Source: Patescibacteria group bacterium
Lineage (GTDB): Bacteria; Patescibacteriota; Minisyncoccia; Phycocordibacterales; Phycocordibacteraceae
Length of the DNA: 61,480 nucleotides
Direction of reading: 5' to 3'
Assembly: GCA_038062735.1 (NCBI GenBank)
Contig: JBBTWN010000009.1
Coordinates: 1-61,480 of the forward strand
Position numbers and translations under genes: made by a program
Shown: positions 18,104 through 61,480 of the stretch, in pieces
How the letters are laid out: each line of letters opens with the position of its first letter
Position numbering within the stretch: the stretch's first letter is position 1
The notes under the pieces: generated by a model
Database searches by the model: none
The model's input: only the letters and a program-made list of their open reading frames with translations
What the model was told of the DNA's origin: nothing

Positions 18104-18649
18104 ATGGACGATATCCCGTCACTACTTGAAAAGGCAGTTCGTATCGCAGTCGAGGCGCATAAAGATCAAAAGCGCAAAGATGGCCCCCCGTATATCATCC
18201 ACCCCTTTGGGGTCGCACTCAAACTCGCAAAGTATGGTTTTTCAGATACCGTTGTTGCTGCGGCGCTCGTACACGATGTATTGGAAGATACTGAATATCC
18301 CCCGGATACAATGCATGCAGAGCTTGGTGACGAGGTATGGGCAATTATCCAGTCGGTAACCAACGACGACTCTCTCTCGTGGGAGGACAAAAAGCTCAAA
18401 TACATAGAAACAGTACGCGCAGGGTCCGACGATGCCAAGGCAGTAGCGACGGGAGATAAGATTCATAATATGGAGAGTCTGGTTATTGCATACAAGGAGC
18501 ATGGAGATACGCTTTGGACCAAATTTAATGCAAACAAAGTAAAGAAATTATGGTTTGAAGAAAAGATGCTCGCGATGCTCAAAGAATCGTGGAGCCACCC
18601 GATGATACAAGAATACGAGTCTCTCGTTGCCTGGATGCGTAGTCTTTAG
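18104..18649 (+). CDS. HD-domain (p)ppGpp-hydrolase-like protein (RelA/SpoT hydrolase domain only)
   Basis: HKDQKRKDGPPYIIHPFGVA...AAALVHDVLEDT. Confidence 0.82.
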   Translation: MDDIPSLLEKAVRIAVEAHKDQKRKDGPPYIIHPFGVALKLAKYGFSDTVVAAALVHDVLEDTEYPPDTMHAELGDEVWAIIQSVTNDDSLSWEDKKLKYIETVRAGSDDAKAVATGDKIHNMESLVIAYKEHGDTLWTKFNANKVKKLWFEEKMLAMLKESWSHPMIQEYESLVAWMRSL

Positions 18650-18679
18650 GGTTACCAAGGACACTAGGCAAAGGAGGTA

Positions 18680-18708
18680 TTGACATTAGTCATTGAATGG
18701 TGTATACT
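18680..18708 (+). promoter_or_regulatory. near-consensus sigma70 promoter TTGACA, 17-nt spacer, TATACT
   Basis: -35 at 18680-18685 and -10 at 18703-18708. Confidence 0.6.
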
Positions 18709-18871
18709 GAACAAAAATAAAAAGTAGAAAATCACATATGAGAAAAGAAATAAAAAATACTGAAGTTCAGTTCGAGCTGGTCGTCCGATAGGTTCACCTG
18801 AAGCGCAGACTCGATCGCTTGTTCAGGAAGTTTTCGCGAAAATCGACAACGAACCGCGCGTAAATACAGAG

Positions 18872-19315
18872 ATGCGAGGTAATCCAGTACTTGTGGAGAC
18901 AAGAGCGACCGCCGATCGTTCCGCAATAGATAGTATAGAAGGAAAAAAACATGATGTCAGAGGTGAGTCTAAGTTAGTGTCTACTTTATTGTTCGTACCA
19001 AGGCTGCTCAGAACAATAGTTCGAGAACTCATAGTCGGAATTAGCACACTTATCACAGGTATTGTTGTTATGGGGGGTATTGGATCTGGGATCGGAGCGT
19101 TCATAGGAGCAATCGCAGGTGCATTCAAGTGGGCAGCAGCCGGTTTTGCTATTGGTGCACTATCTACGACGTTTGTCCCTGCATTTTTGCTGGGCTCACT
19201 AGTCGGTGCAGCACTCTTCTTATTTGTTGGTCTTACGGCGGGTATTGGGTTTGAAAATGAACCAGATATCCGAAGATTTGTTAAGAAAAATATCACGCGA
19301 GAAAAAACAGCTTAA
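18872..19315 (+). CDS. glycine-zipper-rich membrane protein (start uncertain, see finding)
   Basis: GIGSGIGAFIGAIAGAF...AAGFAIGAL...LGSLVGAALFLFVGLTAGIG. The overlapping minus-strand ORF looks like a shadow. Confidence 0.45.
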   Translation: MRGNPVLVETRATADRSAIDSIEGKKHDVRGESKLVSTLLFVPRLLRTIVRELIVGISTLITGIVVMGGIGSGIGAFIGAIAGAFKWAAAGFAIGALSTTFVPAFLLGSLVGAALFLFVGLTAGIGFENEPDIRRFVKKNITREKTA

Positions 19316-19537
19316 TAAAACAAAAACATGTCAAGATTTAACGAAAAACTCAAGCACCGGACTGATGCGGCGCTAGAAATCAGTACCATTAAAATTGATC
19401 ATCACTTTGGTTGGGTTTTTTGGTCCAATGGTGCTGGGTAGTCTGCACTCTGTAATGGAGAAACGAAGGAAAGCTATTGATGATGAAACGGCGCTGAGAA
19501 ACGCGGCACGACGTACACCAGCTATAGCTTCGCGGCG

Positions 19538-20644
19538 TTAGTGAAGGCCGATTTGGCGTTTCTTTTCTTCGTCGCTACGGAGCATGTCTCGTTGTTCTAT
19601 ATAGTGCGTCCGTACAGAATCAGATAGTGGTGTGTCTGTGAGCACCGATGTTAAAACTTCAGTCCAAAAGACAATGCGCGCTGTATTCAGCAGTTTTAAA
19701 TTTCCATCAACAGAGCGAAGCGTTTGCGTGTAGTACCAGAGTATTTCGCCCAGACGAAATACGCGCATGAGCTTCAGCGCGAGTACTTCTTCTTCGCCGC
19801 GGTTTAAACGCACGTATTCTATAAGAGCATCAGCAAGGGGCGGGTTATAAAGCGTCATAAAATTGATAAAACGCGCCCACCCCTCATACTTATTTCCAAA
19901 ACGAATGGAAGAATGATCAAGAAGATAGATACTGTTGTTTTTAATACGAATGTTGTGGGGCACAAAGTCGACGTGGACAAGAAAGCTTCCATACCGGTCT
20001 ATCGTCGTCGCATGTTTCGATATAAGTCCAATCGCTGACTCAAGCGTTTTAATGAATCCGGGAGACACTTCAGACGATGCACGGATATTTGAAACAAAGT
20101 CAGCAAAAAGTGTGCGATATGCACTGCTGTCGATGGGTGCGACGACACGAGAGATCTTCTGCATATGGGTATAGGTCGTCGCGTGTGCGGACTCCTGCGC
20201 TTTAAACGCAGAAAGGGCAAATGCAAATTGTTCTTTCAGTGGTCGTTCAAGGAATGTGCTTGTTTGTTCAATAAACTCGGTAATACTGATAGTAAATCCG
20301 CCGCTCTCACCAGCATACAAAACGCGCGGTGAGTGGAAAGCTTGATAAGCAAAATTGATGGAGTGTAGCAATGCGCGTGCTTTTTGTTCATGCGCTATTT
20401 CTCGAATGCCGTCAGCGTCGCGCGTTGCTTTTATGATGACCCGCGTATTATCCGATTTCTTATGTCCGATGAGTATTAGTTTGCGTCCGCCCGCTGTAGT
20501 TACTGCCTGCATAAGATGCCGCTCGCCAGAAATATGCGGTTGCTGTGATTCAAGAGTGTACCCGAGCGCTCCAGCAATTTGAATAAACGCCGAGAGTTCA
20601 TCTTTTACATATGCGTCCCATTCGCTTTGTGTAGCTAAGTTCAT
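19538..20644 (-). CDS. aminoglycoside/choline-kinase-like phosphotransferase (APH family)
   Basis: Catalytic-loop-like VHVDFVPHNI and a downstream LLDHSS motif. 368 aa. Confidence 0.7.
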   Translation of the reverse strand: MNLATQSEWDAYVKDELSAFIQIAGALGYTLESQQPHISGERHLMQAVTTAGGRKLILIGHKKSDNTRVIIKATRDADGIREIAHEQKARALLHSINFAYQAFHSPRVLYAGESGGFTISITEFIEQTSTFLERPLKEQFAFALSAFKAQESAHATTYTHMQKISRVVAPIDSSAYRTLFADFVSNIRASSEVSPGFIKTLESAIGLISKHATTIDRYGSFLVHVDFVPHNIRIKNNSIYLLDHSSIRFGNKYEGWARFINFMTLYNPPLADALIEYVRLNRGEEEVLALKLMRVFRLGEILWYYTQTLRSVDGNLKLLNTARIVFWTEVLTSVLTDTPLSDSVRTHYIEQRDMLRSDEEKKRQIGLH

Positions 20645-21168
20645 ACGCCGAGCTCAGCACGATGCGCCGCCCACTCGTTTTCATAGTTTTGAAATGCTGC
20701 AACAGGATATGCATCGAGCGGAAGTATTTCTGGTCGTGGACTAGGAACTGTAGAGATTATTTTTTTAGCCTGTGACGCTGCAATGCGCTGGAGCGTTTTT
20801 CGCACCAACGTCTTTTCTACCCACTGCTGTGCCGCCACGTCGCCGATGACAAAAAAAACTTTTGTTTGCATCAAGAGAGAAGCGAGCACAAACGGCAGTT
20901 CTGTAGAGGCGCCGTTCATAACGAGGACAAGGTCAGTTTCTTGAGCGCTTTGCATAAATGCCCGTGTATAGCGGTAGAGCCGCGTGAGGAGAGGGACACG
21001 TTTATCGATAGCAACTATGGGCACCCCAGCTATTTCAACAGGCAGGTGCCCGTAGGTCAGTACCGTGACTGTGTGGTGCTCTGACAGGCGCCCTGCCAGT
21101 GCTTTGACGTACTCGGCGAGTGGGGCCACGTCCGGTGGGTAAAGCGGGGTACAAATGGCTATTCTCAT
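20641..21168 (-). CDS. stand-alone GT4 N-terminal-domain-like protein
   Basis: MRIAICTPLYPPDVAPLAEYV resembles Glyco_trans_4-like N domains. There is no C-terminal GT1 half. Start moved to ATG 21168. 4-nt overlap with the kinase-like gene. Confidence 0.55.
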   Translation of the reverse strand: MRIAICTPLYPPDVAPLAEYVKALAGRLSEHHTVTVLTYGHLPVEIAGVPIVAIDKRVPLLTRLYRYTRAFMQSAQETDLVLVMNGASTELPFVLASLLMQTKVFFVIGDVAAQQWVEKTLVRKTLQRIAASQAKKIISTVPSPRPEILPLDAYPVAAFQNYENEWAAHRAELGV

Positions 21169-50884: not shown

Positions 50885-51056
50885 TTATCCACACTGAAGT
50901 TTTTTTAAGCATTGTTATAGTGCGTAGATATTCAATAATGAGTGTAAGCTTGTATTGCGACGCAGGAATGAGTGTTCGCACAACTCACTCATTCACCAGG
51001 TCGGGCGTCGAGCGCACTACAAGTCGTTTATTCACCAAACAAAAATAAAAAATTGT

Positions 51057-51122
51057 ATGGCAAAGAAAAAGGCGAAGAAGACGACGAAGAAGGCAAAGCG
51101 CTCTTCGAAGAAGCGCCGATAG
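51057..51122 (+). CDS. candidate 21-aa Lys/Arg-rich micropeptide MAKKKAKKTTKKAKRSSKKRR
   Basis: ATG-initiated ORF followed 36 nt later by a strong terminator. It is below the track cutoff and speculative. Confidence 0.3.
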   Translation: MAKKKAKKTTKKAKRSSKKRR

Positions 51123-51157
51123 TTCGGCCCGGTTTTCTCCGCGGAGAAAATCCTCAG

Positions 51158-51187
51158 AAAACGCCCCGGTGTCCGGGGCGTTTTTTC
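51158..51187 (+). terminator. intrinsic terminator
   Basis: ACGCCCCGG-tgt-CCGGGGCGT followed by TTTTTT. Confidence 0.75.
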
Positions 51188-51229
51188 TATTCCGATCATT
51201 TTGTGAGCCATGGTACACTCATACATGCT

Positions 51230-53695
51230 ATGAGCCTTTTAGACAGTATATTTGGCCGTACTTCGCCCTTGTTAGGCGAGGGGCAGAAGCTCGTGTCTCA
51301 GGTTTCAGCGCTCGAAGGTGAGACGAAAGGTCTCTCAGACACATCTTTGAAAGCGGTGACCGATGCCCTTCGTGCCGAGCTTGCAGCAGGCGCGACACTG
51401 GATTCGTTAGTGCCACGTGCATTTGCTGCCGTCCGTGAGGCGTCGCGCCGGACACTGAGTGAGCGACACTATGATGTGCAAATTATTGGTGGTTATGTAC
51501 TCCATCGTGGTGCAATCGCAGAAATGCGAACGGGAGAAGGAAAAACGTTAGTCGCCACACTCCCCGTATATGCAAATGCGCTCGTTGGTCGCGGTGTACA
51601 TGTAGTCACGGTGAATGATTATTTGGCTCGCCGTGACGGCGTATGGATGGGCCAGATTTACCACGCGCTCGGCATGACAGTCGGCATTATTAATCATGAT
51701 CAGTCGTATCGATATGACCCAACTGCGGTGAAAGCGGATGACGCGGTATCGCTCGATGCTACCGTTGATACTCTCGGTTCATTTAAGGTGGTGCATGAAT
51801 TTATGCGACCCTGCACACGACACGAAGCGTATGCGGCGGACATCACGTACGGCACTAACAATGAATTTGGCTTTGACTATCTTCGCGATAATCTTGAGTA
51901 CGATCAGGCAAAAGTTCGTCAACGTGACCACTACTACGCGGTCGTTGATGAGGTTGATTCGATTTTGATTGATGAGGCGCGTACACCACTTATCATTTCA
52001 GGACCATCACAAGATGCCGAAGCGCTCTATCTCCAATTTGCTGCGATTGCAAAAACGTTACACGATGTCGACGATTATGTCATCAATGAAAAAGATCACG
52101 CTGCACTGTTGACTGATCGCGGTATTGAGAAGGCTGAGAGGGCGCTCGGTATTGAAAACATGTATGCAGAGGGTGGTGCGAAAATGGTCCATCACCTTGA
52201 GAACGCTGTAAAAGCAAAAGCGCTCTATCACAAAGACAAGGAGTATGTAGTGAAGGGAAACGAAATCGTTATCGTCGATGAGTTTACCGGGCGACTACAA
52301 CCAGGCAGGCGCTGGTCAGAGGGACTCCATCAAGCGATCGAAGCCAAGGAGGGTGTACCAATACAAAAGGAGTCGCAAACGTATGCGAGTGTCACTTTTC
52401 AAAACTACTTTCGCATGTACGATAAGGTCGCCGGCATGACAGGGACGGGACTAACGAGCCAAGAAGAGCTCTATGCGGTCTATAAACTCGACGTGGTCCC
52501 GATACCGACGCACCGTGCTATTCAACGCCGCGACGAACCGGACAAGATATTTCAAAATGAAGCAGGTAAGTTTCGCGCCCTGACCGCGGAGGTAAAGGTG
52601 AGGCACGCTCACGGCCAGCCTGTCCTCATTGGTACTACCTCGATTGAAATGAATGAGCGTTTGTCAGAGTATTTGAGAGGGGCGGGTATCCCGCATGAAG
52701 TGTTGAATGCCAAAAACCATGAGCGCGAGGGAGAGATTATTGCTGACGCAGGAAAGCGGGGTGCGGTAACCGTTGCTACCAACATGGCTGGTCGTGGGGT
52801 AGATATTAAGCTTGGTGGACCAATGGCCGAGGAGTCGGCTCGAGACGAGGTGCGAAAAATCGGCGGACTGTTCGTTATCGGCACAGAACGGCATGACGCG
52901 AGACGCATCGACAACCAGCTTCGCGGTCGAGCGGGTAGACAAGGCGACCCCGGCGAGACGCAGTTCTTTGTATCGCTTGAGGACAAACTCATGCGCATTT
53001 TCGCGTCTGACATGGTAAAGCGTATGATGGGTAATCTCGGTATTCAAGAAGACGAGCCGATCCAGAGCCGTTTGGTGTCTCGTGCGCTTGAGAGTGCGCA
53101 GGAGAAGATTGAGGGCCACAACTTTGATTCTCGCAAGCACGTGCTCGGTTTTGATGACGTGTTAAACCACCAGCGCTCAACGGTATATGGGAGAAGACGC
53201 GAAGTTCTGTTTGGCGACGCCGCTCATGTTTTGGCTCAGGCTCGAGAGCACCTTATGTCTGATAGCGCGGATCAAGGGATCATCGAAGCAAAGCGAGAAG
53301 AAATAGGCGAGGAAGCACTGGTTGCGGTATTACGGCGAATCTTGCTTCAAGCATACGATCTCTTTTGGATAGAGCATATCGACACGATGGAGCACCTACG
53401 CCAGTCAGTTAACCTCCGTTCCTATGGTGGTCGTGATCCATTTACAGAATACAGAAAGGAGGGACTGCGCCTCTTCCGTACACTTGAAGCAAACCTCGCG
53501 CATTTCGTTGCAGAGGCGATACCGCGTATTGAGCGCGTCGAGCGAGTGCAGATGCCGGAATCTATATTGACCTCAGGTGGCAAAAAGTATGAGCGCAATG
53601 CGTTCGTGACTATAACTGACGGCACCGAGACCAGAGAAATGAAATTTAAGAAGGCTGAGCCCCTACTCCGCGCAGGCTGGCGGATTGTCGAATAG
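51230..53695 (+). CDS. secA: preprotein translocase ATPase SecA
   Basis: MRTGEGKTLVATLP Walker A, DEVDSILIDEARTPLIIS, and TNMAGRGVDI. The N-terminus MSLLDSIFG is typical. TGgTACACT (51211-51219) lies upstream. Confidence 0.95.
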   Translation: MSLLDSIFGRTSPLLGEGQKLVSQVSALEGETKGLSDTSLKAVTDALRAELAAGATLDSLVPRAFAAVREASRRTLSERHYDVQIIGGYVLHRGAIAEMRTGEGKTLVATLPVYANALVGRGVHVVTVNDYLARRDGVWMGQIYHALGMTVGIINHDQSYRYDPTAVKADDAVSLDATVDTLGSFKVVHEFMRPCTRHEAYAADITYGTNNEFGFDYLRDNLEYDQAKVRQRDHYYAVVDEVDSILIDEARTPLIISGPSQDAEALYLQFAAIAKTLHDVDDYVINEKDHAALLTDRGIEKAERALGIENMYAEGGAKMVHHLENAVKAKALYHKDKEYVVKGNEIVIVDEFTGRLQPGRRWSEGLHQAIEAKEGVPIQKESQTYASVTFQNYFRMYDKVAGMTGTGLTSQEELYAVYKLDVVPIPTHRAIQRRDEPDKIFQNEAGKFRALTAEVKVRHAHGQPVLIGTTSIEMNERLSEYLRGAGIPHEVLNAKNHEREGEIIADAGKRGAVTVATNMAGRGVDIKLGGPMAEESARDEVRKIGGLFVIGTERHDARRIDNQLRGRAGRQGDPGETQFFVSLEDKLMRIFASDMVKRMMGNLGIQEDEPIQSRLVSRALESAQEKIEGHNFDSRKHVLGFDDVLNHQRSTVYGRRREVLFGDAAHVLAQAREHLMSDSADQGIIEAKREEIGEEALVAVLRRILLQAYDLFWIEHIDTMEHLRQSVNLRSYGGRDPFTEYRKEGLRLFRTLEANLAHFVAEAIPRIERVERVQMPESILTSGGKKYERNAFVTITDGTETREMKFKKAEPLLRAGWRIVE

Positions 53696-54711: not shown

Positions 54712-55047
54712 ATGGTACATCTACTACTACGTGTCCTCGGGGGTGCTGCGGCAGTGCTTGCTGCAGCGTATTTGGTACCTGGCATCCATGTCGCTGATTT
54801 TTATGTGGCGCTTATCGTTGCCATTTTACTCGGTATTATCGGTGTGACATTAAAGCCCATACTCGCCATTCTCACTCTGCCGATTACACTTCTGACATTC
54901 GGACTATTCTCGTTCATCATTAATGCAGCTATTCTGTGGTTTGTCGCTAGTTTTGTCGACGGGTTTGATATTGATACGTTTGTCGCTGCGCTCATAGGCT
55001 CGCTCGTTATATCAGTTGTACAGTGGGTGTTACATCGCATTGTGTGA
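54712..55047 (+). CDS. phage holin family 4 / DUF360 (YvlD-like) membrane protein
   Basis: AAAYLVPGIHVADF...LKPILAILTLPITLLTFGLFSFIINAAILW...VDGFDIDTF closely follows the family consensus. Confidence 0.85.
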   Translation: MVHLLLRVLGGAAAVLAAAYLVPGIHVADFYVALIVAILLGIIGVTLKPILAILTLPITLLTFGLFSFIINAAILWFVASFVDGFDIDTFVAALIGSLVISVVQWVLHRIV

Positions 55048-56049: not shown

Positions 56050-57459
56050 ATGAGCGCCTATCGCCCCACGATCGGGCTTGAGATCCATGCCGAGCTTAAG
56101 ACGCGCACCAAGATGTTTTGTACATCAAAGAACGACCCCGACGAAGAAAATCCGAATGTTAATGTGTGTCCCGTGTGTATGGCATATCCGGGGACCCTTC
56201 CCGTCGTTAACAAAGAAGCGGTGCACAGTGTACTGCGCGTTGGGGCTGCAGTCGGTGGGACCATAGCAGACTACACAGAGTTCGATAGAAAGAATTATTT
56301 TTATCCTGACATACCGAAGGGGTATCAGATATCACAGTACGAGTATCCTTTGGTAAAGGGGGGGGAGCTCGCCGGTGTAAAAATCACACGAATTCATCTT
56401 GAAGAAGATACAGCAAATGCAAAACACCGAGGGGATACAAGTCTCATCGATTTTAATCGTGCGGGCATGCCACTTATGGAGCTAGTTACAGAACCCGTTA
56501 TTCATGACGCGGTAACTGCAGGAAACTTTGCACGCGAGCTCCAACAGCTGCTTCGGGCACTCGGCGTTGCTGAGGCACAGATGGAGAAGGGGCAGATGCG
56601 CGTCGAAGTAAACATTTCAGTATCAAAAGATGATACGCTCGGCAAAAGAAGTGAAATCAAAAATATCAACTCGTTTCGTGCAGCAGAGCGTGCAATCGAG
56701 TTTGAAATAAAAAGACAGACAGCGGTCCTTGGGTCCGGGGGAGTGTTGCTGCAAGAGACTCGCGGGTTTGATGAAAATACTGGCGAGACGTTTAGTCAAC
56801 GACTCAAAGAGGATTCAAACGACTATCGTTACTTCCCTGACCCAGACATACCAAAGCTAAAAATTTCTGACATCCCAGAATTTGCTCGCGATGTTCTCGA
56901 TGCATCACTTCCTGAACTTCCAGCGACACGGCGAGCACGGCTCGTGGCACTTGGTGTGCGTCGAGAAGATGCAGATGTGCTTATCGCAGATCACTTGTAC
57001 GGCGCTTTTTTTGATGCGGAGGTTGCAGGACAACTCGCTCCTGGGCTGATCGGCAAAGGTTCAAACTATTTACTTACTGATGTTCGTGCAGTCGCCACTG
57101 AAAGTATGTTGAACAATTTGCGCAACGGCGTCTTTGGAGATGTGATTCGCATGACAGACGCTGGCGATCTATCAAGTCGCGGAACAAAAGATCTGTTACT
57201 TCGTCTTATGGAGAAGGGGGGTGATGCGCACACTGTTGCAGAAAAGGAGGGAATGCTTCAAATGAAGGACACGGCTCTCATCGAGCGCATTGTGGATGAG
57301 GTGGTTGTCGAGCACCAGGGTGTCGTTATGGAGGTCCAAAAGGGTAAGGAGGAGGCGATGAAGTTTTTAATTGGTATGGTCATGAAGAAGTCAAAAGGGG
57401 CAGCAAATCCAACTGATGCAGCAACGATCTTGAAGTCAAAGATTCAACAGAAGACTTAA
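56050..57459 (+). CDS. gatB: Asp/Glu-tRNA(Asn/Gln) amidotransferase subunit B
   Basis: PTIGLEIHAELKTRTKMFC, CPVCMAYPGTLP, and a C-terminal GatB/YqeY domain. Confidence 0.93.
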   Translation: MSAYRPTIGLEIHAELKTRTKMFCTSKNDPDEENPNVNVCPVCMAYPGTLPVVNKEAVHSVLRVGAAVGGTIADYTEFDRKNYFYPDIPKGYQISQYEYPLVKGGELAGVKITRIHLEEDTANAKHRGDTSLIDFNRAGMPLMELVTEPVIHDAVTAGNFARELQQLLRALGVAEAQMEKGQMRVEVNISVSKDDTLGKRSEIKNINSFRAAERAIEFEIKRQTAVLGSGGVLLQETRGFDENTGETFSQRLKEDSNDYRYFPDPDIPKLKISDIPEFARDVLDASLPELPATRRARLVALGVRREDADVLIADHLYGAFFDAEVAGQLAPGLIGKGSNYLLTDVRAVATESMLNNLRNGVFGDVIRMTDAGDLSSRGTKDLLLRLMEKGGDAHTVAEKEGMLQMKDTALIERIVDEVVVEHQGVVMEVQKGKEEAMKFLIGMVMKKSKGAANPTDAATILKSKIQQKT

Positions 57460-57484
57460 GCATATAGGGAAGCAATCTTCCAAA

Positions 57485-57514
57485 AATGCTTTCTCGGTTA
57501 GCCGAGAAAGCATT
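57485..57514. terminator. 13-bp perfect hairpin between convergent genes
   Basis: AATGCTTTCTCGG-ttag-CCGAGAAAGCATT. The A-tract on the plus side gives a T-tract for the minus-strand gene. Confidence 0.6.
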
Positions 57515-57535
57515 CAAAATAAGGATATTTCAAAT

Positions 57536-57880
57536 TTAAACAAGAAGGTTTTTTGCACTACGTCTGACAATAGTTTTGAATCTATGTTTAAGCAGGTAGC
57601 GCAATCTTGACTCAGTTCTGTGTGCGCTTCGCACATGGTCAAAGAGCCCGTTCTTTCTTTGGATTCGACGCTCATGGTACCCAGCAAAAACACGCACATC
57701 CCGAATAGGTCTCATTGTAGCTAGGATCGAGGCTATTCTCCCTCTAAGCTCCGCATACCAAACGTTTACCGTCTTCCTATTAATCTTGAGGAGCCGAGCC
57801 GCCTGAGATGCGGTCAGATCCTCTATATAGCAATCCACTATACGGGTTCGTGTTGCGAGTGGGAGTCGTGTGAATCGCAT
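57536..57880 (-). mobile_element. IS1595 (ISXO2-like) family transposase remnant, 114-aa ORF
   Basis: The N-terminus RLPLATRTRIVDCYIEDLTASQAARLLKINRKTVNVWYAELRGRI matches the HTH part of ISXO2-like transposases as I recall them. The DDE core is missing. Confidence 0.45.
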
Positions 57881-57991
57881 GATGTAAGTATATCATGAGA
57901 TACTGGTCTAGCTATAGACATCAAAAAAGTACCCACACCCAGAGGGGAAAAACCTCCGAAGTGGGTATATAATTAAGGTTAGAAATAAACC

Positions 57992-58558
57992 ATGGATGAA
58001 GTAGTGATCAGTGGAAAAAAATATATTTCATCAAAGCGAGCAGCACGCACATCTGGATACGCACCAGACTACATCGGCCAACTCGTACGTGAGAGCAAAT
58101 TGCAGGCAGTAAAGGTCGGCAGGGCGTGGTTTGTGGCTGAGATGGGCTTGCAAGAGCTTGTAGCAGGGCCAGGAGAGCTTTCAGTCATAGCATCTTCAGC
58201 TACACTTCCTGAAACTTGGTCTCCGGTGATCTATATGAAAGATGATGCACCGTTGTACCCGATAGCACAAGAAAATAAAATCTCGGATACTCGAGAAAAT
58301 GATGATTTAAGCCACCATGCTGAAGAAAAAGTTGTAAAATCAGTTGAAATTATGAAAATTGCTCTACCAAAACGATCAAATGGCATTTCTCTCGATGGTA
58401 TTAAGCAAATTCCTAAGGAGATTAAGGCTATAGGCGCAGTTTCTATCTCTGTTACTCCAAAGCGTAGAGTATCCAGACTAGTTGGATACGCGCTTTCAGT
58501 TCTCTTTGGTGTTTTGTTTGTGACCATTCTCGTTTTTCTGATTTCACTTTTCTACTAA
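57992..58558 (+). CDS. tail-anchored protein with N-terminal excisionase/MerR-like HTH
   Basis: KKYISSKRAARTSGYAPDYIGQLVRESKLQAVKVGRAWFVAEMGLQEL (HTH_17-like). The C-terminus is the TM segment LVGYALSVLFGVLFVTILVFLISLFY. Confidence 0.6.
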   Translation: MDEVVISGKKYISSKRAARTSGYAPDYIGQLVRESKLQAVKVGRAWFVAEMGLQELVAGPGELSVIASSATLPETWSPVIYMKDDAPLYPIAQENKISDTRENDDLSHHAEEKVVKSVEIMKIALPKRSNGISLDGIKQIPKEIKAIGAVSISVTPKRRVSRLVGYALSVLFGVLFVTILVFLISLFY

Positions 58559-58647
58559 TTTTTCTTTCAAATTCTTATCAACACCAAGCGCATATTTTGC
58601 GTCCGAGATGGAGATATGAGTAGTAAAATATAGATAAATCGGAAATC

Positions 58648-61480
58648 ATGAGTATCAGCGAGATCGAAGAAATTTGGATAACATCTCGCGATGCGTCGGA
58701 GAGATTTGGCTACACATCAGACTACGTAGCTTTTTTATGTCGGACAGGAAAAATAATTGCACGTCGCGCTGGTCGCTCGTGGAAGATTTCTGAAATTTCA
58801 ATTTCAGAATTTGCATCTCGAGCTCGACAGGCTGAAGAGATACGGCACACAAAGCTTCGAGAAGAGCGTAGAAAAGAATATATCCGCCGCGCGGCACTTT
58901 TGTCGCCACAATCTGCTGGCCTCTCATTGTCAACACGTCGTGCGATGGGTAATGTTGCTGGCGCTCTTATTTTACTGTTTGCTTTTTCGTTTGGTGCCTA
59001 TGCACTGCCAAGCACAATTATAGGTAAGTCGTTTGCAAACATTGGCACGGTAGTGCAAAGCCTACCATTTGGTTTTGAAAGAAATATTGCAAGTGCCTTG
59101 GTCGCAGTCTCTGACGTTGTCTCCGGAGAAACGCGCACCACGACTATCCCGCACCTCGCCTTTTCTTGGTTTGATTTTTTCGACAAAGTTAAAATGGCAC
59201 TCTTTGGTGAGCCAGCTCCAACCGCAATTGTTCAAGCTCCGATCGCGTCATCAACGCAACCCAGAGCTCAACCGACGGTTACTATTGTTGAGAAAAATGT
59301 TGGACCGACAACAGTCGTGCGTAATGTATCCGAGTACGTAACCGTAACAGGAGTTACATACGCTGAACTCGAGGCGGCGATCAAGGCGCTTGAAGCTCGT
59401 TTAATTTCACTCATCCCACAGGTGGTTCCATTTTCTGGCACTCCACCAATCACCGTAGTGAACACACAGACGTTCGCACAAAGCCAGCGCATCGATTCGC
59501 TTGACGGTGTGACGATCACGAACGCAAACATTATCGGTGGCACTATCACGGGCATCAGCGGTTTAGGTGGCGGTTCTGGAACTGTTGCATCAGGTACCGT
59601 TGGTCAAATCGCGTACTACAATGCTAACGGCTCTACCCTGTCAGCGACATCATCGATTTTTGTTTCTGATACCCAGCGTATTGGTATCGCCACGTCGTCG
59701 CCGCTCGCACAACTTACGGTGTATGGTGACGTACTTTTGTCAGGTGCAAATCGCTATTTGAATTTTGGTGATGCAAATGGTGTGTCCGGCTACGGCATTC
59801 GCGACAACGCCGGCATTATCGAATTTAAAAACTTGAGTGGCGGTTGGTCTGCATTAGGCTCTAGCGGTACCGGTGGCGGGACCTGGTCAACAACAACATC
59901 ATCGGTGGCAGGCGTGCTCGTAAACTATTCAAACAATTCGTCTGACATCGTCGCTATTGGTTCTACGGGGACCACGACAGCAGAATACTGGTTTGATCCA
60001 AATACGCTTATGGCGTATTTTTCTGGCAACGTTGGCCTTTCAACCACGACCCCTTTTGCTAAACTCGCCGTTCAAGCCACTGCTGGTCAAACTAACCCTG
60101 TATTCCAGGTTTCTTCCTCATCAAATGCAGTTAATTTCTTGACGGTTGCTGGTGACGGTTTTGGAACCACAACCCTCACCGGTCTTAACGTAAGTGGCTC
60201 CGCCACCTCCACCTCAAACGTCGGTTTTAACATCACCACGGGCTGCTTCGCCATTAACGGCACCTGCTTAGGTTCAAGTGCCTTCACCTCGATAGGCCCC
60301 GCCGGCCAACTCCAGATAGGACCAAACGTGACCCTTGCAACCAGCTCCTCTGCCTTCAACGGTCTCACTTCTTCAACCACCATCACCGGCTCAGGAAACG
60401 TCATCACCTTCACCAATACTTTGGCAGGTCTCCTCGGTGCTGCAGGTGGCGGTACTGGTCTCTCCTCCATCACGCAGAATCAACTCCTCATTGGTGGAGC
60501 AGGAAATACGTGGGTACAAATCGCCACCTCATCACTCGGCATAAACTTCTCTTCACTCATCGGCACAGCATCTGACGCACAAGTCGACAACAACCTCACG
60601 ATCTCAGGAGGAACCATCGACAATACTCCGATTGGTGCGACGACACCAAGTACCGGAGTGTTTACGAACTCGACGAGTACGAATGCGACCACCACAAACC
60701 AAAACATTTCAGGGTCACTCGTGGTCACCGGGACTTCAACACTTGCAACCACCTCACTTTCACAATTCTCGATAACCGGCATCGGCACCTCAACCATTGC
60801 AAATAATCTTTCACTCGGTGGTGATATCGAAGCGAATCAACTCTTCTTGAACGGTGCGACATCAACTGCTGCAAATGGTTTCAACATCGCCACAGGTTGT
60901 TTTGCTGTGAACGGTGTGTGCATCACATCAGGATCATCAGGTATCACCGCCATTGGTCCAACAGGTCAGACACAAACCGGCCCGACAGTAACTTTTGCAA
61001 CTTCTTCTGTCGCGTTTAACGGTTTGACTTCTTCGACGACAATCACTGGGGCTGGCAACACACTGACATTTACAAATACTTTGGCCGGCATTCTCGGTGC
61101 AGCCGGCGGAGGTACCGGTCTCTCATCCATCACACAGAATCAACTCTTGGTTGGTGGAGCAGGAAACACTTGGGTACAAATCGCCACCTCATCCCTCGGT
61201 ATCAACTTCACCGACCTTGTCGGATCTGCAACAGACAGCCAAGTCGACAACAACCTAACGATTGTCGCTGGAACCATCGACAATACTCCGATTGGTGCAA
61301 CCACTCCATCAACGGGAGTGTTTACGAACAGCACTTCAAGCAACGCCACCTCCACAAACCTCGCTGTCTCAAGTGCACTCACTGTTTCTGGCACATCAAC
61401 GCTCGCTACCACTTCAGTTGCACGACTCACCCTCGCCAATTTGACCGGCCTCCTCCGTGCCACTGCCGGTGTCGTCTCCA
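58648..61480 (+). CDS. giant HTH-TM-beta-repeat surface protein, 5' part (more than 944 codons, open at the window end). NOT in the supplied ORF track.
   Basis: Manual translation of the phase of nt 58648 gives an ATG followed by 944 codons with no stop up to nt 61480. N-terminal HTH similar to the 57992 gene, TM at about aa 101-120, then a T/S/G/N-rich repeat region. Confidence 0.85.
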   Translation, partial: MSISEIEEIWITSRDASERFGYTSDYVAFLCRTGKIIARRAGRSWKISEISISEFASRARQAEEIRHTKLREERRKEYIRRAALLSPQSAGLSLSTRRAMGNVAGALILLFAFSFGAYALPSTIIGKSFANIGTVVQSLPFGFERNIASALVAVSDVVSGETRTTTIPHLAFSWFDFFDKVKMALFGEPAPTAIVQAPIASSTQPRAQPTVTIVEKNVGPTTVVRNVSEYVTVTGVTYAELEAAIKALEARLISLIPQVVPFSGTPPITVVNTQTFAQSQRIDSLDGVTITNANIIGGTITGISGLGGGSGTVASGTVGQIAYYNANGSTLSATSSIFVSDTQRIGIATSSPLAQLTVYGDVLLSGANRYLNFGDANGVSGYGIRDNAGIIEFKNLSGGWSALGSSGTGGGTWSTTTSSVAGVLVNYSNNSSDIVAIGSTGTTTAEYWFDPNTLMAYFSGNVGLSTTTPFAKLAVQATAGQTNPVFQVSSSSNAVNFLTVAGDGFGTTTLTGLNVSGSATSTSNVGFNITTGCFAINGTCLGSSAFTSIGPAGQLQIGPNVTLATSSSAFNGLTSSTTITGSGNVITFTNTLAGLLGAAGGGTGLSSITQNQLLIGGAGNTWVQIATSSLGINFSSLIGTASDAQVDNNLTISGGTIDNTPIGATTPSTGVFTNSTSTNATTTNQNISGSLVVTGTSTLATTSLSQFSITGIGTSTIANNLSLGGDIEANQLFLNGATSTAANGFNIATGCFAVNGVCITSGSSGITAIGPTGQTQTGPTVTFATSSVAFNGLTSSTTITGAGNTLTFTNTLAGILGAAGGGTGLSSITQNQLLVGGAGNTWVQIATSSLGINFTDLVGSATDSQVDNNLTIVAGTIDNTPIGATTPSTGVFTNSTSSNATSTNLAVSSALTVSGTSTLATTSVARLTLANLTGLLRATAGVVS
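60196..60852 (+). repeat. tandem coding repeat, copy 1 (about 218 aa unit)
   Basis: GFNITTGCFAINGTC...TQNQLLIGGAGNTWVQIATSSLGINF...GTIDNTPIGATTPSTGVFTNSTS aligns with copy 2 at a period of 654 nt. Confidence 0.8.
60853..61480 (+). repeat. tandem coding repeat, copy 2 (truncated by the window end)
   Basis: GFNIATGCFAVNGVC...TQNQLLVGGAGNTWVQIATSSLGINF...GTIDNTPIGATTPSTGVFTNSTS. Confidence 0.8.

Follow-up and report, generated by a model that had tools for sequence, protein, structure and literature searches.

The right end of a contig from a Patescibacteria group bacterium raises the question of what kind of protein would join a DNA-binding-type domain, a single membrane span and a giant repeat-built surface region in one chain. 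The window, namely the whole stretch of 61,480 nucleotides that was analyzed, covers the contig in full and ends within a gene on the plus strand (58648..61480), the 5′ part of which comprises 944 sense codons with zero stops and is cut by the contig end. An in-frame TAA lies at 58624-58626 in front of the ATG at 58648, which is thus the first start, and the orthologue P0028 starts at the same position. The remaining five frames of this region contain 16-59 stops, the base composition gives a probability of ~1.3e-18 for 944 open codons, and 1000 shuffled sequences contain no open run longer than 243 codons. An earlier note had described the frame as hidden, and this is borne out: the supplied ORF list leaves out frames running off the source end, and presents instead the five short ORFs that the note had cited (58757-59023 and 59069-59341 on the plus strand; 60087-60473, 60480-60797 and 61140-61463 on the minus strand). 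The product is already deposited at NCBI as an identical partial CDS of 944 aa (P0001), under the name [quoted passage not shown]. Its orthologues share 41-79% identity, and the dN/dS over aa 1-330 is 0.09 against the counterpart in L001. The GC content is flat along the whole contig. The frame is a genuine chromosomal, contig-truncated gene of a Patescibacteria (Paceibacteria/Parcubacteria-type) bacterium.

The N-terminal part of the protein (aa 10-58, nt 58675..58821) is, as judged from its predicted structure, a cytoplasmic winged helix-turn-helix (HTH) of the excisionase/MerR/BldC type. It is matched by the Pfam profile HTH_17 (PF12728) at E values of 1e-3 to 2e-4, the full protein scoring 19.7 bits and aa 1-330 scoring 22.0 bits, both below the curated cut-off of 27 bits. 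Homologues of the same layout pass this cut-off (P0004, 27.1; P0005, 27.7; P0024, 27.4; P0055, 32.8; P0049, 35.7 bits), and 24 of the 49 family members have an HTH_17 match at E<=1e-3. The AlphaFold2 (AF2) model, built from a 49-sequence alignment, adopts a β-α-α-β-β fold (strands 10-12, 38-41 and 44-48; helices 13-20 and 24-33) followed by a long helix, with a pLDDT of 97-98 over aa 10-80, in good agreement with the HTH that the earlier note had placed at aa ~8-55.

Structural similarity search using Foldseek gave mycobacteriophage Xis, BldC, RacA, RdfS and pIP501 TraN as the best solved folds, with weak E values for so small a domain (>=0.065) though with probabilities of 0.97-1.0. These proteins (HTH_17 PF12728; TIGR01764) share the β-α-α-β-β fold with an rmsd of 1.4-2.3 Å over 46-57 residues; the TM-score (target) is 0.70-0.72 with an rmsd of 1.4 Å for Xis (4j2n), and 0.76-0.80 with an rmsd of 1.5-1.7 Å for BldC (6ama/6amk). 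RacA and the MerR proteins also possess a long helix after the HTH, and TraN has two tandem HTHs, like many members of the present family, the sequence profile of which matches TraN at E 3e-3. However, all five are soluble cytoplasmic proteins, whereas the HTH described here is fused via one transmembrane (TM) helix to an extracellular protein. Compared to the Xis-type proteins, the family also has a signature of its own, with GYTxDY, LCRxGK and the linker motif RxxxLxxxRxxEY. The label "MerR-like" in the earlier note holds for the DNA-binding fold and not for the effector domain, which is absent.

The HTH is under strong constraint, with a dN/dS of 0.04 against L001, and its family signature reads GYTxDY[IV]xxLCRxGK...G[RK]xW. 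Basic residues are kept at positions K/R14, R32, K35, R/K39, R/K40 and R/K43, and helix 2 and the wing remain basic at the positions that usually contact phosphate; the mean net charge of 233 HTH segments is +2.3. By analogy with all its structural neighbours the domain may bind DNA, a proposition that we consider finely balanced. A Pfam scan of the protein yields HTH_17 alone, with no Trans_reg_C. NCBIfam gives zero matches for this protein and for its upstream paralogue, PHROGs gives marginal matches, including excisionase phrog_1840 at E 0.075, and a PDB sequence search with the whole protein returns no match.

The HTH is connected to the membrane by a basic linker (aa 59-100, nt 58822..58947). 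The last HTH helix extends to aa 85 (AF2 helix 49-85, pLDDT 97 up to aa ~80) and is followed by a short spacer with an RR pair. This linker bears the family-conserved RxxxLxxxRxxEY, in which L70 and R74 are conserved at >=90% among 25 diverse members. The single TM helix (aa 101-121, nt 58948..59010), a predicted signal-anchor with the N-terminus inside, has the sequence GNVAGALILLFAFSFGAYALP, which includes Gly, Asn and Ser and contains no charged residues; about 50 residues separate it from the HTH. It corresponds to the sole Kyte-Doolittle peak above 1.6 (1.94, aa ~101-125) and is covered by an AF2 helix at 94-119, in accordance with the span that had been proposed at nt 58948-59007. The inside orientation of the N-terminus, also proposed before, is supported by 20 K/R within the first 100 aa, by the RR immediately on the N-side of the TM, and by P0006 and P0008, in which the fibre modules of this gene recur after a cleavable signal peptide. 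From hydropathy together with domain logic, the protein is thus predicted to be bitopic, with an inside N-terminus, one TM and an outside C-terminal part.

The outside part begins with a variable juxtamembrane stalk (aa 122-224, nt 59011..59319) of low AF2 confidence, which shares 70% identity with that of L001 at saturated dS and differs in length and sequence across the family. It is followed by a conserved neck (aa 225-300, nt 59320..59547), which has blocks that do not vary between orthologues and carries VRNVSEYVTVTGVTYAELEAAIKALEARL, a helix, and, further on, QSQRIDSLDGVTITNANIIGG. The neck has a dN/dS of 0.04 and an AF2 helix at 238-259 with a pLDDT of ~91, and is also found in the 2,439-aa P0033 and in the 2,640-aa protein of L012. 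The remainder (aa 301-944, nt 59548..61480) is a Thr/Gly/Ser/Asn-rich fibre region with the recurrent motifs IG(x)TT(x)P(x)AxLxV and GCFAxNGxC. Over the fibre region, charged residues amount to 4%, and Thr, Gly and Ser are abundant. BLASTP between the two halves revealed a 220-aa tandem repeat (copy 1, aa 526-709, nt 60223..60774; copy 2, aa 744-929, nt 60877..61434), the copies of which share 77% amino acid identity (E 5e-84) and 72% DNA identity at a spacing of 660 nt. Self-BLAST returned the identity match only, and Tandem Repeats Finder returned nothing on the gene, this 660-nt repeat being too divergent or too long for the tool. The contig breaks within these repeats, shortly after copy 2. 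The AF2 monomer model of aa 225-760 is poor (pLDDT 53), and its Foldseek matches, extended phage fibres among them, were set aside as all have E>0.3.

Sequence comparison relates the fibre region to the signal-peptide proteins P0006 and P0008 and to the Peptidase_S74-bearing P0018, P0022, P0025 and P0026. Peptidase_S74 (PF13884) is combined with HTH and TM in a single protein in P0033, P0128, P0054, P0049 and P0025, and a Bact_surface_Ig-like domain is present in P0033, P0054, P0038, P0049 and P0060. In the longer relatives, of 1,475-3,342 aa, either or both of these domains lie near the C-terminus; the complete syntenic counterpart in L012 (2,640 aa) has no S74 match at E<=0.01, and the present gene is cut at aa 944. 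Peptidase_S74 is an intramolecular chaperone typical of trimeric fibres, and phage-type fibres and tailspikes such as the endosialidase and the T5 L-shaped fibre are trimers with this domain at the C-terminus. Low charge, a T/S/G/N-rich composition and long tandem repeats are common to our protein, phage-type fibres and the large putative repeat adhesins of Parcubacteria; phage-type fibres, however, sit on the virion baseplate, whereas our protein has an N-terminal TM in the cell and a cytoplasmic HTH. Parcubacteria genomes have been noted (PMC4508563) for unique proteins exceeding 1500 aa, the beta-rich repeats of which are described as "indicative of adhesins", for an abundance of TM proteins and for a scarcity of signal peptides. 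Judged by homology, the outside region is a very long, low-charge, repeat-built relative of extracellular fibre proteins, as the earlier note had suspected from its composition. We infer a trimeric fibre at the cell surface that is held in the cytoplasmic membrane and serves as an adhesin or in host contact.

The same N-terminal module recurs widely. One or two HTHs followed by one TM head at least 1,570 protein clusters (representatives at 50% identity, E<=1e-3), and all matches bearing an organism name belong to Patescibacteria. The outside parts behind this module differ widely, in proteins of 113 to 3,466 aa. Our protein carries, in order, the elements that define the family (the HTH signature, RxxxLxxxRxxEY and a single TM), and the family HMM matches it at E 1e-22 and the upstream paralogue at 2e-22. 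In nearly all of the best ~148 homologues, one or two N-terminal HTHs and then the TM share a single chain, so the layout is indeed found in related genomes of the candidate phyla radiation (CPR) and the HTH is not a gene apart. A metagenome scan found no full-length close orthologue. The gene belongs to a family of membrane-tethered HTH proteins that is large, uncharacterized and apparently specific to CPR. The earlier claim that this architecture falls outside described families stands in so far as no HTH_17-TM-fibre protein is described in the literature searched or matched by a Pfam, NCBIfam or PHROGs family; however, the ORF is already annotated as a partial CDS and is a member of a very large family rather than a singleton.

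Directly upstream lies a tail-anchored paralogue of 188 aa (57992..58558, plus strand; "hypothetical protein AAB573_02030" at NCBI), with an N-terminal HTH and an extreme C-terminal TM that occupies residues 169-187 of the 189-residue stop-to-stop frame and is followed by two residues. The pair of a short and a long HTH gene is also present in L001-L005, L008, L012 and L013. The gene order MurB-SecA-...-Obg-GatB-short HTH-TM-long gene is kept in L001, L004 and L012; L013 retains SecA-GatB ahead of the pair, and in L003 only GatB and the HTH gene pair are seen. Between the two genes, locus comparison revealed a non-coding 16-mer, TAGTAAAATNTAGNTA (58621..58636), 12 nt before the start codon, which contains a -10-like TAAAAT and occurs once in the window. 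It is kept in seven loci, with an exact copy at the corresponding position of L001-L004 and L008 and a single mismatch in L013. An invariant 9-mer, TTATCAACA (58575..58583), which we take to resemble a DnaA box, lies 45-49 nt upstream of the 16-mer. The 16-mer is a candidate promoter/operator and a candidate site for the HTH. A sigma-70 consensus scan of 57400-58800 gave no promoter, and the intergenic element matches no RNA family in Rfam. An RNA-structure reading of this element was rejected, as its CTAG..CTAG hairpin is broken in two of five sequences (RNAalifold).

The architecture of a cytoplasmic winged HTH, one TM and a giant surface fibre is very probably correct. As an overall explanation we favour, with moderate confidence, a bitopic HTH-TM surface fibre with its DNA-binding-type end inside. 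The fibre would be anchored in the cytoplasmic membrane and its outside part would contact the host. Were the cytoplasmic HTH to bind DNA, it would link the fibre physically with the nucleoid or with gene expression, as in tethered regulators of the ToxR/CadC type. The protein probably works with the tail-anchored paralogue, and its HTH might act on the 16-nt element before its own start codon. The paralogue, which has nothing outside the cell, shows that the HTH-TM unit can do without a sensor there, a point that counts against the version in which the fibre protein signals from outside to inside, which we regard as rather unlikely.

On the most likely reading, which also has the best mechanistic analogy, a host-contact fibre would carry a membrane-tethered, DNA-binding end comparable to that of ToxR. 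ToxR, CadC, TcpP and VtrA have the same topology as our protein, with an N-terminal cytoplasmic winged helix, one TM and an outside domain, and a second membrane protein is encoded alongside, namely the adjacent co-components ToxS and VtrC (PMC5430869, PMC9214523). They differ in three respects. The ToxR-like DNA-binding domain is of the OmpR/PhoB type, compared to the Xis/MerR type here; their outside sensor domain is small, compared to a fibre of >800 aa, and of >2,000 aa in relatives; and their neighbour is a periplasmic partner, whereas here it is a paralogue with its own HTH.

The alternative that survives best, though we consider it improbable, takes the HTH as a protein-protein docking module that would fasten the fibre to some partner in the cytoplasm or to the paralogue and would arrange the fibres within the envelope. 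The cytoplasmic HTH of RodZ binds MreB, so such an HTH need not bind DNA, and RodZ resembles our protein in having a basic stretch next to the membrane, a single TM and an outside segment rich in Ser/Thr. The invariant D25-Y26 and the linker motif are specific to the family rather than common to HTH_17 at large, and might constitute a binding surface; the HTH-TM unit stands alone as a tail-anchored protein adjoining the long gene; and the great differences among the outside parts fit a generic anchoring module. By contrast, fold and profile match DNA-binding proteins only, the phosphate-contact positions remain basic, and RodZ differs in its Xre-type HTH (HTH_25) and DUF4115, neither of which is detected by Pfam in the 49 family members or in our protein, the C-terminus of which is missing.

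It is more doubtful still that the protein is a latent transcription factor, in which host contact or fibre tension leads to intramembrane cleavage and the freed HTH moves to the chromosome, following the logic of Notch or RseA/RsgI. The ~50-residue tether and the Gly, Asn and Ser within the TM would suit such a release, and the autoproteolytic S74 of relatives shows processing within this protein class. However, S74 cleaves itself at the far C-terminus and not at the membrane, no protease is linked to the locus, and the paralogue has no outside part with which to sense.

A prophage or mobile-element tail-fibre gene with a fused excisionase-type remnant is largely refuted. Phages often carry HTH_17 and Peptidase_S74, and the relative P0128 is surrounded by small ORFs, with an integrase fragment and a ParA-like gene nearby; against this, our gene lies in a housekeeping block (MurB, SecA, Obg and GatB) at a position kept in five other genomes (L001, L003, L004, L012 and L013), and the GC content is level. 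Deposited phage genomes show no detectable sequence similarity to the fibre part (tblastn against 50,697 phage records), and in two scans covering 2.9 million viral contigs neither a relative by protein pattern nor a match to the signature DNA pattern turned up. This DNA pattern recovers only about one in four of the HTHs known from the compared loci, which makes the negative a soft one. An assembly or gene-calling artefact, with a small HTH regulator joined to a secreted fibre by a sequencing error, would be conceivable for a gene that reaches the end of one metagenome-assembled contig, but is refuted for practical purposes by the continuous layout in independent assemblies of different sources and in nearly all of the ~148 representative homologues, and by purifying selection across the HTH-TM/fibre junction.

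Patescibacteria account for much of bacterial diversity, have tiny genomes and live in attachment to other cells; to our knowledge, little is understood about the way in which they sense their hosts and hold on to them. Surface fibres and membrane-tethered winged helices are each known, and it is their combination that is new to the curated families and literature searched. The weight of this finding lies in the at least 1,570 clusters, the strongly constrained HTH and the fixed chromosomal position beside a tail-anchored paralogue. In the broadest reading of the bitopic HTH-TM fibre, which at this breadth we think unlikely, the module would be a major unrecognized Patescibacteria-specific class of one-component tethered DNA-binding proteins, with the paralogue as partner and the 16-mer as operator. 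Its long members would wire a phage-fibre-like host-contact filament to the chromosome, and host attachment, through force or ligand, could be turned into gene regulation or the anchoring of the nucleoid, with neither kinases nor second messengers involved. Should the HTH prove to bind DNA, these proteins would give ultra-small cells a simple and testable path by which contact with the host reaches gene expression, or else a tether between nucleoid and envelope; should it not, they would represent a new module by which envelope proteins dock in the cytoplasm. In both cases, concrete reagents are at hand in the 16-nt element and the HTH-helix fragment of 90 aa, and the family definition can serve to annotate thousands of "hypothetical" CPR proteins.

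The open frame at 58648-61480 (+) begins with an ATG at 58648 and runs through 944 sense codons, free of stops, to the last base of the window, exactly as read in the earlier note. An in-frame TAA at 58624-58626 lies upstream, which makes this ATG the first possible start; the closest orthologue starts at the equivalent position. Each of the other five frames here carries 16-59 stops. From base composition, the probability of 944 open codons is ~1e-18, and the longest open run in 1000 shuffles was 243 codons. The frame was hidden because the mechanical ORF list skips ORFs running off the source, in keeping with the note's explanation that the supplied track omitted it for want of an in-window stop; the short ORFs named across the region are all present in that list. 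NCBI holds an identical 944-residue product, 'MAG: helix-turn-helix domain-containing protein, partial [Patescibacteria group bacterium]'. The long gene is already known to databases as a partial entry, cut by the contig end; the window spans the entire contig of 61,480 bases.

The N-terminal domain of the long protein is predicted to adopt a compact winged-helix fold. In the AlphaFold2 model of residues 1-330, built from an alignment of 49 sequences, the pLDDT reaches 97-98 over residues 10-80, which are ordered as a strand (10-12), two helices (13-20 and 24-33), a hairpin (38-41/44-48) and a long helix (49-85). The PDB chains that fit best in Foldseek all belong to small winged-helix DNA-binding proteins: mycobacteriophage Pukovnik Xis (rmsd 1.4 Å, TM-score 0.70-0.72, probability 0.99-1.0), BldC (rmsd 1.5-1.7 Å, TM-score 0.76-0.80), and further RacA, RdfS and TraN. 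Their E-values, at 0.065 or above, are weak, as the domain is small relative to the 330-residue query; the family sequence profile also retrieved TraN of pIP501 from the PDB at E 3e-3. The sole Pfam match of the long protein is HTH_17 (PF12728) at residues 10-58, with no second domain found, and it scores 19.7 bits for the full protein and 22.0 bits for the N-terminal 330 residues, against a cut-off of 27. The N-terminal HTH claimed in the note thus holds at the level of the predicted fold, and the profile search it proposed did find HTH_17, but below the threshold; strict HTH_17 membership fails for the long protein, whereas its homologues reach it. On the model, the domain would resemble the HTH_17/excisionase proteins in both fold and working. 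At the positions through which this fold usually faces DNA, the family HTHs remain basic: R32 in 100%, K35 in 73%, and positions 39, 40 and 43 in 61-67%, with a net charge of +2.3 on average over 233 HTH segments. We infer that the HTH of the long protein binds DNA.

A single membrane span follows the basic linker, as previously noted. The Kyte-Doolittle profile has one peak, at about residues 101-125; residues 101-121 are devoid of charge, with RR directly on the N-side, and the first 100 residues contain 20 K/R. The second helix of the AlphaFold2 model (94-119) covers this hydrophobic span. The topology most consistent with such an arrangement is N-in.

The part beyond the span has only 4% charged residues and is rich in Thr (17%), Gly (14%) and Ser (13%). 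It contains a ~220-residue unit in two copies (residues 526-709 and 744-929), with identities of 77% for the protein and 72% for the DNA, at a spacing of 660 nt; this repeat probably broke the assembly. Parts of the C-terminal region are 50-60% identical to P0006 and P0008, two proteins that begin with ordinary cleavable signal peptides, and the region is also similar to the S74-bearing proteins P0018, P0022, P0025 and P0026. Composition, repeats and these likenesses bear out the earlier description of a Thr/Ser/Gly-rich, fibre-like outside part, and the repeat region is, as judged from the alignments, homologous to extracellular fibre proteins. Longer relatives combine the HTH with known fibre domains in one chain. 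P0033 (2,439 residues) has HTH_17 at 15-63, Peptidase_S74 at 2172-2225 and Bact_surface_Ig-like at 2354-2431, and aligns with the long protein over residues 10-300 (E 3e-26) and, a second time, along the fibre motifs. P0054 (3,342 residues) and P0049 (1,898 residues) likewise carry HTH, S74 and Ig-like domains, P0128 (1,926 residues) carries HTH_17 and S74, and in P0038 and P0060 the N-terminal module shared with the long protein is followed by Ig-like but no S74 domains. Since trimeric phage-type fibres use S74 as an autocleaving chaperone, we infer that the long protein forms a trimeric surface fibre. Its outside part is similar to fibres of the S74 type, although the long gene itself is truncated and its C-terminus is missing. 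The AlphaFold2 monomer of residues 225-760 had a pLDDT of 53 and gave no significant structural match.

When residues 1-330 were run with HMMER against 1.84 billion representative proteins, 1,570 matched at E<=1e-3, 82 of them at E<=1e-10. Nearly all of the best ~148 of these 1,570 possess one or two N-terminal HTHs followed by exactly one hydrophobic span, at a distance of 23-200 residues, in proteins of 113-3,466 residues (median 371); the HTH and the span thus share one chain, and the N-terminal module is not always a separate gene. Among 49 family proteins, Pfam detected HTH_17 in 24 and no other domain. The HTH signature is [YF][IL]SxKxAAxxxGYTxDY[IV]xxLCRxGK[IVL]xA[RK][RK][VI]G[RK]xW[YF]V[ED]ExSL, and RxxxLxxxRxxEY is conserved in the helix after it. 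Every organism-named match is from Patescibacteria, including Paceibacterota, Parcubacteria, Adlerbacteria and Pacebacteria, with 'Saccharibacteria' in some TPA assemblies. No family member turned up in two scans of viral contigs; the DNA pattern used recovers only about one quarter of known members. At the locus of P0128 (L007, 1-21781), the gene lies amid many small unannotated ORFs and neighbours a TIR/FGE-sulfatase protein, a ParA/CbiA-like gene and an integrase fragment. A mobile element may carry this part of the family.

The long gene is preceded, across an 89-nt spacer, by a 188-residue 'hypothetical protein' at 57992-58558 (+), which is, by its N-terminal HTH (family HMM E 2e-22), a paralogue of the long protein. 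Its TM helix ends two residues before the stop, so the short paralogue is tail-anchored with nothing outside the cell. These two are the only family members in the 61-kb window, and the pair recurs in at least eight other loci (L001-L005, L008, L012 and L013). The surrounding genes encode Wzy_C/TPR, MurB, SecA, a methyltransferase, a small holin-family membrane protein, Obg, GatB and a minus-strand small HTH_28 protein, and the GC content is level along the whole contig. The order MurB-SecA-...-Obg-GatB-short-long is kept in L001, L004 and L012; L012, a contig of 495,613 bases from Adlerbacteria, has a complete long gene of 2,640 residues. In L013, a short protein with two HTHs and a 497-residue HTH protein come after SecA-GatB. 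Compared with L001, dN/dS is 0.04 for the HTH, 0.18 for the linker, 0.27 for the TM, 0.04 for the neck (residues 225-300) and 0.09 overall. These dN/dS values exclude an artefactual fusion as well as a recent insertion by a phage.

Several neighbours merit separate mention. The 111-residue Phage_holin_4_2 protein (PF04020, E 1e-31) at 54712-55047 (+), between the methyltransferase and obg, is syntenic in L001 and L004; given this housekeeping setting, it is a conserved small membrane protein and not a prophage holin. SecA is listed from a GTG at 50972-53695 (+) with 907 residues; since the syntenic genes in L001, L004, L012 and L013 encode 815-840 residues from an ATG, the true start is probably internal. 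The 114-residue HTH_28/HTH_23 protein at 57536-57880 (-), between gatB and the pair, has equal-length, same-strand counterparts in L001 and L004 and may be a local regulator. In L013, a 3,108-residue gene at 18454-20990 (+), without a Pfam match, lies ~7 kb downstream of the pair, directly after the ATP synthase operon.

Two conserved elements, each unique in the window, occupy the spacer. The 16-mer TAGTAAAATNTAGNTA (58621-58636), 12 nt before the ATG of the long gene, recurs exactly at the same place in L001 (9974), L002 (9025), L003 (9953), L004 (7806) and L008 (3005), and with one mismatch in L013 (11110), although the proteins of these loci are only 41-79% identical. Within it lie a -10-like TAAAAT and a pair of TAG half-sites at a spacing of 10 nt. 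Xis- and BldC-type proteins bind DNA head-to-tail, a mode that this spacing would suit, and the element is a candidate promoter/operator. TTATCAACA (58575-58583), 45-49 nt upstream of TAGTAAAATNTAGNTA, is invariant in the window and L001-L004 and is one mismatch from the DnaA-box consensus. L012 instead carries CTATCCACA upstream. Rfam gave no match for the intergenic element, and two of five sequences disrupt the hairpin that it might form. Upstream of the short paralogue (57870-57991), an invariant GATACTGGTCTAGCT is kept in L001 and L004, and a TATAAT ~24 nt before the ATG is kept in L001; the promoter of the pair probably lies here, although a consensus promoter scan did not list it.

Overall, the long gene is conserved, and its product combines a winged HTH of the Xis/MerR type with a conserved helix, a single TM, a helical neck that is likewise conserved, and a long repeat region. 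Searches of the literature and of four profile libraries turned up no description of this architecture. The earlier note's claim that it fits no described family therefore stands for the architecture, but not for the protein, which belongs to the family of 1,570 representative matches. A study of 2015 noted large repeat 'adhesins', numerous TM proteins and a scarcity of signal peptides in Parcubacteria, with no mention of an HTH (PMC4508563). As membrane-tethered winged-helix proteins and surface fibres are both known kinds, HTH-TM-fibre is a new combination and not categorically new. The protein is not a member of the ToxR family, whose DNA-binding domain is of a different type, nor is it RodZ, as HTH_25 and DUF4115 are absent. 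The main rival is a RodZ-like reading in which the HTH would serve to dock a cytoplasmic partner. In its favour are the conserved residues peculiar to the family and the recurrence of the HTH-TM unit as a module in front of very different outside parts; against it, the structural neighbours are exclusively DNA-binding. Proteolytic release of the HTH is less likely, as is a prophage tail-fibre origin, the fibre part having no tblastn match in 50,697 phage genomes; an assembly artefact is also less likely. We favour a membrane-tethered HTH that would act on DNA near the membrane, with a logic like that of ToxR/CadC, probably jointly with the tail-anchored short paralogue. Through such a protein, a host-contact fibre would be linked to gene expression or to anchoring of the nucleoid.
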